Virus record (IMG/VR): IMGVR_UViG_3300048893_000079
Span: 1 to 64,000 of that record
Source of the DNA: a virus
Taxonomy: Duplodnaviria; Caudoviricetes
Length of the DNA stretch: 64,000 nt
Reading direction: 5' to 3' (one strand)
Shown: positions 16,351 to 16,770 of the stretch, in pieces
Numbering within the stretch: position 1 is the first letter of the stretch
Layout: each line of letters starts with the position of its first letter
The notes under the pieces: model-generated
What the model was told of the DNA's origin: nothing
The model's input: only the letters and a program-made list of their open reading frames with translations
Database searches by the model: none
Translations under genes and position numbers: made by a program

Positions 16351-16770
16351 GTTAACCTTCGATTGCCAGCGAAAGTGCGCCTGCACACAGCCTTGCCATG
16401 GTTAACGTGCTCTAAGCCTTTGATCTTAACCAAGCTTCGTGCAGGGGCCGCAAGCCCCCTCAACGCCGACTGGCGGAAATCCTCGAAAAACATGGTTAAC
16501 GCGGGCGATCCTTGCCCGGCTTGGCCTGCCGGTTAACCAATTAACCATTAACATCAAGCACTTAGCGCCGCGGTTAACCAATTAACCATTAACTTCAATG
16601 ACTTAGATGGTTAATGTGTGCCATAATGGGACGCCGTTAACCAATTAACCATTAACATCAAGCACTTAGATGGTTAACGCATGCAATCGGCGTGCCAACG
16701 CGGGCATAACGTGGTTAATATCAAGGACTTAGATGGTTAATTGCGTCAGAAATGTCGAAACCGGTTAAGA
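16351..16770. repeat. AT-rich TTAAC array: 18 TTAA, 8 TTAACCAT, 5 copies of TTAA-N-WTCAA-NNN-CTTAG
   Basis: GTTAACCAATTAACCATTAAC at 16532, 16573, 16636; 18-mer at 16548, 16589, 16652, 16715 and inverted at 16412. Confidence 0.9.

Follow-up and report, generated by a model that had tools for sequence, protein, structure and literature searches.

Several phages of alphaproteobacteria, among them Delta, MMDA13, and the phiCbK-like phages, carry gaps or terminal repeats dense in CtrA sites (Mascolo et al. 2022, PMC9437464), and the authors argued that this feature evolved independently in at least five lineages. The gap of the Brevundimonas phage Delta (MN862068) is 1312 bp long and holds 30 TTAA and 12 TTAA-N7-TTAA sites; phosphorylated CtrA (CtrA~P) shifts a probe from this gap, and compromising CtrA raises the expression of DELTA_120 by a factor of 4.5 to 6 (PMC9437464). 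In the Sphingomonas phage MMDA13 (vB_StuS_MMDA13; Marmo et al. 2020, PMC7472734), TGCGTTAACCAT direct repeats occupy a 1186-bp gap, and Mascolo et al. 2022 placed these repeats in the CtrA class (PMC9437464). The 8-mer TTAACCAT is an ungapped CtrA variant (PMC6180460), and the motif (G/A)TTAACCAT(A/G) was derived from chromatin immunoprecipitation sequencing of SciP at CtrA-activated S-phase promoters (Fumeaux et al. 2014, PMC4083442). Here we analyze the first 64 kb (the window, 64,000 nucleotides) of an 82,527-bp IMG/VR virus record, IMGVR_UViG_3300048893_000079, which belongs to a YuA-like siphovirus as judged by 48% (TerL) and 68% (major capsid protein [MCP]) identity to Pseudomonas and Bordetella isolates. 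Its only divergent noncoding gap harbors an array of about 420 bp in which TTAACCAT half-sites alternate with an IHF-like motif. Most likely, this array is a control hub of the kind published in 2022, with variant details, namely, half-sites only, interleaved IHF sites, and a predicted embedded sigma-54 promoter.

CtrA-type half-sites are clustered in the divergent gap

The window contains eight exact copies of TTAACCAT, all within about 420 bp (positions 16345 to 16770), while none of 100 dinucleotide shuffles reached this number (mean, 0.43; maximum, 3). Over the whole genome there is a single further copy, at 81062. Likewise, 18 of the 63 genomic TTAA tetramers lie between positions 16340 and 16780, and the densest 500-bp bin holds 14 of them compared to a genome mean of 0.38. 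Eight of nine TTAACCAT and 18 of 63 TTAA therefore fall in 0.5% of the genome, a strong positional clustering of CtrA-type motifs. A purine is found at position -1 of all eight array copies and a 3' purine in two of them, and when the shorter word TTAACC is counted, each genome copy carries 17 within this one block.

The half-sites are interleaved with the motif TTAA-N-WTCAA-NNN-CTTAG, present in four direct copies (16548, 16589, 16652, and 16715) and one inverted copy (16412-16429) and nowhere else in the genome, even when two mismatches were allowed. Both words belong to a composite repeat, GTTAACCAATTAACCATTAAC-[W]TCAA-NNNC-TTAG-ATGGTTAAY, of which the array contains three long, one short, and one inverted copy (Table 1). 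These counts bear out a preliminary description of this DNA made from its letters alone, which had listed the eight half-sites with their coordinates and strands, the 18 TTAA, and the five copies of the interleaved motif, and which had rightly equated TTAACCAT with the published ungapped CtrA motif.

Table 1. Features in and around the array (positions in the window)
Feature	Position	Strand	Basis or context
Sole divergent noncoding gap of the genome	15931..17143 (1213 bp)	.	Open reading frame/GC3 gene calls, Pfam/PHROG
Block conserved in L002: array, G-rich palindrome, and two R repeats	16345..16930	.	
Inverted composite unit: GTTAACCATG half-site, IHF-like ATCAAAGGCTTAG, GGTTAAG	16398..16433	-	Motif search
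Isolated exact half-site, context GTTAACCATG	16492..16499	-	Motif search
Long unit 1: GTTAACCAA-TTAACCAT-TAAC, then ATCAAGCACTTAG	16532..16565	+	Repeat and motif search
Long unit 2: same 21-mer as unit 1, TTCAATGACTTAG, inverted half-site ATGGTTAAT	16573..16615	+	Repeat and motif search
Long unit 3: same 21-mer as unit 1, ATCAAGCACTTAG, ATGGTTAAC; last half-site 16670-16677	16636..16678	+	
Predicted sigma-54 (-24/-12) promoter, exact match TGGCACGCCGATTGCA	16682..16697 (16697->16682, leftward)	-	Between units 3 and 4; predicted +1 at ~16671
Short unit 4: GGTTAAT, perfect IHF consensus TATCAAGGACTTA (16719-16731), ATGGTTAAT	16712..16741	+	
G-rich palindrome GGGGGTGGGGCGCCCCTCCCTCCC	16777..16800	.	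End of the array
Two R repeats, TGAGACTTCCAGGG and TGAGACTTACAGGG	16816..16869	+	About -145 and -175 from the predicted sigma-54 start
Two more R repeats, TGAGACTTACAGGGAACTCCTTTA twice	16009..16082	+	Left of the array; kept in L002 in altered number, amid diverged DNA
TTGACA, -35-like hexamer of a candidate rightward (late-arm) promoter	17087..17092	+	Sequence reading; ~320 bp past the array
CtrA-like full box TTAG-N7-TTAAG	15924..15938	-	~45 nt upstream of the ATG of the first early gene
Three nTAA-N7-TTAACCA(A/G) modules	778-792, 4087-4101, 9791-9805	- (as read)	Fixed spacer, then TTG(TGG/CAT/TAT); ~70 nt upstream of start codons

Outside the gap, TTAA is depleted, with an observed/expected ratio (O/E) of 0.32. 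We considered avoidance of stray CtrA sites as the cause and rejected it, as all TA-rich tetramers are equally depleted (TATA, 0.30; ATTA, 0.36), which is ordinary TA avoidance. A role of the G-rich palindrome as a terminator is likewise not supported, its RNA folding being no better than that of shuffled sequences. The only TTAACCAT copy outside the array (genome positions 81062-81069, minus strand; L004:8762-8769) has an array-type context, GTTAACCATCTAGGAG, and lies 17 nt upstream of the start of a minus-arm gene, overlapping the ribosome-binding site of that gene.

The array is conserved in close and distant relatives

A close relative, the 24.6-kb fragment L002, matches this phage at 98.7% identity across the terminase region and at about 90% in nearby DNA. 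Within the gap, the conserved block (Table 1) shows identities of 97.6% (16345-16509), 99.6% (257/258; 16523-16780), and 95.3% (16781-16930), compared to 51.6% in the left and 58.2% in the right flank, both with indels. A patch at 16510-16522 that has diverged at 8 of 13 positions lies inside the conserved block, which argues for selection rather than recent transfer of the block. The array is real and strongly constrained.

Among 80 TerL-related IMG/VR loci, the array is present within reach in three, namely, L002 and the distant relatives L009 (TerL, 54% identical) and L017 (58%); in the contig of locus L008 (G003; TerL, 55%), it lies just outside the locus. Some 75 other TerL-related viral loci lack it, as do 39 more distant loci of bacterial assemblies. 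In L009, L017, and G003, whose GC contents range from 47 to 53% and TerL identities from 54 to 58%, the array occupies the terminase-arm side of the gap and is followed by a G-rich block, further repeats, and a sigma-70-like promoter. The word GGGGTGGGG in the G-rich block is common to this phage, L017, and G003 at the same place. The genes between gap and terminase differ among the relatives that carry the array.

Counterpart arrays with the consensus R-TTAACC-W-T are found in the equivalent gap of these three distant relatives, of Delta, and of MMDA13. Of 76 TTAACC sites pooled from six gaps, 88% have a purine at -1 and 79% a T at +8, and position +7 is A or T. This pooled consensus matches the (G/A)TTAACCAT(A/G) motif (PMC4083442) and the ungapped CtrA variant (PMC6180460).

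Searches of IMG/VR with the exact 21-mer of the long units and with degenerate composite patterns returned only L002. The looser pattern of three TTAACCAT within 38 bp gave >120 matches, mostly a 27-nt coding repeat and giant-virus bins, and is no measure of CtrA arrays. This repeat, TTAACCATGCCGCCNCCGCGCATYTTC, which spans nine codons of the opposite strand, is widespread in marine viral contigs (IMG/VR loci L130-L209), where it creates false tandem TTAACCAT arrays. In the G003 contig, a second TTAACC cluster (L087:1300-2310, at ~86.8-87.8 kb) lies far from the first and includes three 44-bp tandem units, TTAAGGTTAAC-N16-TTAACCATTA; one phage can therefore have more than a single array of this type.

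The interleaved motif fits the IHF consensus and surrounds a predicted sigma-54 promoter

The WTCAA-NNNC-TTAG part of the repeat, previously described as iteron-like, agrees with the IHF consensus WATCAANNNNTTR in the form given in PMC8942017 and other papers. One match in the array is perfect (Table 1), three read ATCAANNNNTTR, and one is a TTCAA variant, the copies varying at the N positions of the consensus. Of the five genomic copies of ATCAANNNNTTR, four are in the array, where 0.03 would be expected. The earlier suggestion that sites of a second protein overlap the CtrA sites holds as far as the overlap is concerned, the overlapping motif being best read as a host IHF consensus and not as phage iterons. 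Perfect IHF sites are also found in the gap of L017 (three compared to 0.12 expected, two of them as GGTTAATCAA-N4-TTA), and the diverged left flank of L002 holds one more perfect copy.

Between units 3 and 4, the minus strand reads TGGCAC-N5-TTGCA, in exact agreement with the sigma-54 consensus TGGCAC-N5-TTGCW and with its GG-N10-GC spacing. There are two exact matches to TGGCACNNNNNTTGCW in the genome, both on the minus strand and intergenic, compared to 0.057 expected, and none of 300 simulations gave two or more. The predicted transcription start is covered by the half-site 16670-16677, and relative to this start the perfect IHF site has its center near -54, with half-sites around -44 and -66. 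Given this geometry, high CtrA levels would be expected to shut the sigma-54 promoter. The preliminary description had mentioned neither this promoter nor the published precedent. The second exact match (genome positions 78818-78833, minus strand; L004:6518-6533) lies about 70 nt upstream of the gene for a 218-amino-acid (aa) signal-peptide protein.

No Sigma54_activat domain is encoded by the phage in any frame, and a host enhancer-binding protein would therefore be needed. The two R repeats to the right of the array, at about -145 and -175, are at most candidates for the enhancer of this promoter. A word common to the gaps of this phage (16617-16627, minus strand), Delta (plus strand), and L009 (975-985), (A/G)TTATGGCAC(AC), resembles a sigma-54 -24 element without a matching -12 element.

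Host proteins or a phage-encoded binder

Taken together, we consider it reasonably probable that the array is a control hub of the divergent early/late region, made of words for the host proteins CtrA (or CtrA and SciP) and IHF and not for a phage initiator. We infer that the host is an alphaproteobacterium and that CtrA, SciP, and IHF bind the array, and the sign of the regulation is deduced as well. The clues to the host are indirect. The array is shared with phages of Brevundimonas and Sphingomonas, and GANTC is depleted in the whole genome (126 observed, 296 expected; O/E, 0.43, compared to 1.98 for GATC), with no GANTC in the array. This depletion fits pressure from a GANTC-specific methylase or restriction enzyme, as in CcrM-bearing hosts, and is no proof of the host. 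Trans_reg_C and DUF1153/SciP domains were absent from the phage in any frame, no Pfam DNA-binding domain was detected among about 45 proteins of both arms, and no candidate regulator in common with MMDA13 or Delta was found.

Several observations weigh against this assignment. With regard to CtrA, no TTAA-N7-TTAA is present in the array, exact or with one mismatch, as already noted in the preliminary description, and TTAA spacings of 7, 8, 22, and 26 bp contrast with the 11-bp geometry of the CtrA dimer. Near-full CtrA boxes are not above chance in the genome (8 compared to 5.2 expected; P of ~0.2). The Delta probe bound by CtrA holds three N7 sites and not the unit that resembles ours, and the Delta result therefore covers N7-site DNA rather than a half-site-only array; the position of the 68-aa open reading frame (ORF) puts the probe at the left end of the Delta array. 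With regard to IHF, the motif retains two bases, a C and a G, that are dispensable for IHF, and no consensus match is present in the gaps of L009, Delta, and MMDA13. Of the relatives examined, only L002 has a sigma-54 match in its gap; therefore, the predicted embedded promoter is a lineage-specific addition to a shared array. The spacers are as strictly kept in L002 as the words, which suggests either that more is encoded than isolated sites or that the block is young. Finally, capsid and terminase are as close to those of beta- and gammaproteobacterial YuA-like phages as to those of any alphaproteobacterial phage. MCP matched beta- and gammaproteobacterial YuA-like phages at 68%, TerL was found in bacterial genomes only on misbinned contigs of metagenome-assembled genomes, and a protein atlas gave only viral clusters. 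These searches place no host, and CtrA is therefore named here as the presumptive binder. The link to CtrA drawn in the preliminary description is supported by comparison, through the R-TTAACC-W-T word in equivalent gaps and by the published binding and repression in Delta.

Some of these observations would be explained if the array bound an unrecognized phage DNA-binding protein, such as a repressor, a late activator, a partition protein, or an initiator, its likeness to CtrA and IHF sites being coincidental. The whole unit of 34 to 43 bp is repeated with its spacers, the spacing does not suit a CtrA dimer, most of the approximately 130 phage proteins belong to no family, and in YuA a promoter motif peculiar to the phage depends on unknown factors that the phage supplies (PMC10914365). 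We nevertheless regard such a binder as unlikely, because the same 8- to 9-bp word recurs over TerL identities of 35 to 58% and GC contents of 47 to 62%, and also in MMDA13 with its unrelated terminase, and operator specificities of phages are seldom fixed over such distances. Moreover, no regulator candidate is common to the array-bearing phages, and the word is identical to a published host motif, as half-site and as full site alike.

Genome layout and alternative functions of the array

Gene calls based on ORFs and third-codon-position GC content (GC3), together with Pfam and PHROG matches, divide the genome into two opposed arms. The minus arm runs leftwards from 15930 and comprises the early and replication genes; it begins with about 35 small genes of unknown function and, round the circle, includes genes for an SNF2 helicase, a DUF2800 nuclease, an Enc34-type single-stranded DNA-binding protein, and a family-A polymerase (PolA). 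The plus arm starts at 17144 with a collagen-like gene, followed by two tRNAs and by the terminase (23992), portal, capsid, tail, and lysis genes. The ends of the record overlap by about 155 bp, which marks it as a circular or permuted assembly. The first late-arm gene (17144-18337) encodes a 397-aa collagen-like (Gly-X-Y) protein with a noncollagen C-terminal domain, probably a fiber or decoration protein, and because of its repeats the opposite strand looks coding. A neighboring 438-aa protein used as an anchor in IMG/VR returned no loci, and its phage homologues sit in unrelated large phages. An Rfam search of the gap and a DNA similarity search of the gap against isolated phages gave no match.

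The preliminary description had proposed, among other readings, a CtrA-silenced phage origin. At such an origin, by analogy with the Caulobacter chromosomal origin (Cori), CtrA half-sites would silence initiation, and IHF and transcription from the embedded promoter would open the DNA. Siam et al. in 2003 reportedly described CtrA sites a to e in Cori, with an IHF site overlapping CtrA site c. The overlap of IHF and CtrA sites (PMC6393856) and the promoters inside the origin (PMC1914354) provide a precedent, and the analogy extends to the CtrA-plus-IHF content only. In the present phage, repeated units, IHF consensus sites, and a promoter occur together in the only divergent gap of the genome, the AT content of 40-bp segments of the gap is highest (72%) in long unit 2, and the array is clear of the candidate late-arm promoter. 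However, no DnaA box (TTATNCACA or G-box, within one mismatch) is present between 15500 and 17500. Direct repeats as in an iteron-type origin are present, but the neighbors are the collagen-like fiber gene and small unknown genes, with no adjacent initiator gene and no Rep family found. The replication module lies 20 to 35 kb from the array round the circle, GC skew has no turning point at the array, and the equivalent Delta array was shown to control transcription (PMC9437464). An origin in the gap is in our view improbable, and this part of the preliminary description finds no specific support.

We also considered that the array might be a pac or cos region for packaging, bound by the small terminase together with IHF. 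In the cosB site of phage lambda, repeats are interleaved with IHF sites, and the array resembles this arrangement. The Delta assembly ended inside its gap; however, Delta is circularly permuted (PMC9437464). In addition, the terminase genes begin 6.5 kb downstream of the array, beyond unrelated genes, and its motif is common to phages with unrelated terminases, which makes a packaging region very unlikely. Alternatively, as the preliminary description also suggested, the array could be a sponge. With 17 TTAACC words gathered in one block on every genome copy, it would titrate CtrA at multicopy and so disturb the host cell cycle, playing no direct part in phage transcription. This is very unlikely, given the fixed position by promoters in all relatives and the embedded promoter with a half-site on its +1; nor would titration need IHF sites or strictly conserved spacers.

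CtrA-like boxes and other signals outside the array

Outside the gap there are 12 copies of TTAACC, 6 of them in the noncoding 11% of the genome, and most are oriented with minus-arm transcription. Three of them belong to the modules listed in Table 1 (778-792, 4087-4101, and 9791-9805), which are, as judged by sequence and spacing, putative CtrA-type full boxes in upstream-activator position. The full box in front of the first early gene is kept in L002 amid diverged flanks, and together with 13524-13538 (both on the minus strand) it marks two early genes of one design, in which a TTGTTAAGAC box is combined with a short hairpin and a leader of the form AAGGAG-N7-ATG. The TTAACC word is present as both full site and half-site and therefore fits CtrA.

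The R repeats, TGAGACTT(A/C)CAGGG, are found only in the gap, on either side of the array (16009-16032, 16059-16082, 16816-16839, and 16846-16869, all on the plus strand). At the equivalent position, the relatives carry a different repeat, TTTGACC-N3-4-GCGGC. By analogy with YuA, the R repeats may serve as an activator site or as a promoter motif peculiar to the phage. At the place equivalent to the candidate late-arm promoter, the relatives have clear TTGAC(T)-N17-TATAAT-type promoters; a strict sigma-70 scan did not detect the candidate itself. The strict scan for sigma-70 promoters and terminators gave one weak promoter-like site (16598-16627) and nothing above shuffles.

A model for host-state control

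We propose that CtrA~P, probably with or against SciP, would sit on the R-TTAACC-A-T half-sites, while IHF would bend the DNA at the interleaved WATCAA-N4-TTR sites. The resulting large nucleoprotein complex would have an occupancy that tracks the CtrA state of the host, that is, its cell cycle or motility state. Overlying the leftward sigma-54 promoter, the complex would keep it closed as long as CtrA is high, and the CtrA-like full boxes upstream of several early-arm genes may act positively. In a bolder version, which we advance tentatively and consider unlikely, a single switch would read the whole alphaproteobacterial flagellar and cell cycle hierarchy through the CtrA/SciP half-sites, the IHF-bent sigma-54 promoter with its host enhancer-binding protein, and the CtrA full boxes on early promoters, or else the array would be a Cori-like origin gated by CtrA and IHF. 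Either way, the phage would set a key step, whether DNA replication or a second wave of transcription from the left arm, to coincide with the loss of CtrA as swarmer cells become stalked cells.

A host-sensing control region of this kind was described for related phages in 2022, and the present array is a new example. If CtrA, SciP, and IHF bind, the "lytic deferment" signature would extend to a clade of uncultured YuA-like soil phages. An array of extended half-sites only, regular interleaving with IHF sites, and a wired-in sigma-54 promoter are features not reported for the published examples. Being compact (~420 bp) and conserved, the region could be synthesized and assayed with reporters without the phage, and it may help to show whether CtrA reads the TTAACCAT half-site by itself or together with SciP.

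Comparison with described systems

Delta is a distant YuA-like relative (MCP, 52% identical; PolA, 33%; TerL, 35%) and its gap is among the closest published counterparts. Both phages have a gap of about 1.2 to 1.3 kb between divergent arms with the array on the terminase-arm side, a leftward transcription unit that begins at the array, and GGTTAAC/TTAACC words, including a nearly identical CGCCGTTAACC...ATTAAC...ATGGTTAAC unit and CGCCGTTAACCATTAAC...ATGGTTAAC. However, Delta has 12 canonical TTAA-N7-TTAA sites, of which the present array has none, and no IHF consensus or sigma-54 match in its gap. CtrA binding was shown in Delta, whereas the present array is known from its sequence. Delta also has a 68-aa ORF (DELTA_120) beside its array that has no credible counterpart here. 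A 64-aa ORF (16299-16493, minus strand) was examined as such and rejected, as it includes the inverted unit, lacks a ribosome-binding site, and has a frameshifted 3' end in L002.

The likeness to MMDA13 lies in the half-site-type (G)TTAACCAT repeats, the low-GC gap, and the two opposed arms. Its gap carries GTTAACCAT and GTTAACCTTAA repeats, and its TTAACCWT-N5-TTAR-GGTTAAC composites resemble TTAAC-N9-TTAG-N2-GGTTAAC in the present array. In contrast, the MMDA13 TerL is unrelated, its gap has 7 TTAACC and no IHF or sigma-54 consensus, and its class was assigned by sequence. The present phage has the large divergent intergenic gap of the CtrA-gap class and, instead of TTAA-N7-TTAA clusters, half-sites only, as does MMDA13, which is included in the class.

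The CtrA/SciP box of Caulobacter is the same 8-mer with a purine at -1. At S-phase promoters (class II flagellar and pilus genes), it occurs once or twice, over the -35 element, compared to 8 to 17 times within 420 bp and in both orientations here. As in Cori, CtrA-type words and IHF consensus sites are interleaved or abut in one promoter-bearing noncoding region, but the DnaA boxes and the full N7 CtrA sites of Cori are both missing here. Phage YuA itself uses sigma-54, according to Ceyssens 2008 as cited in PMC10914365. Compared to sigma-54 promoters with IHF-assisted enhancer looping, such as those of YuA and of Caulobacter class III/IV flagellar genes, the promoter predicted here is overlaid by CtrA-type half-sites and would need a host-encoded activator, while it shares with them the exact consensus and the perfect IHF site at about -54.

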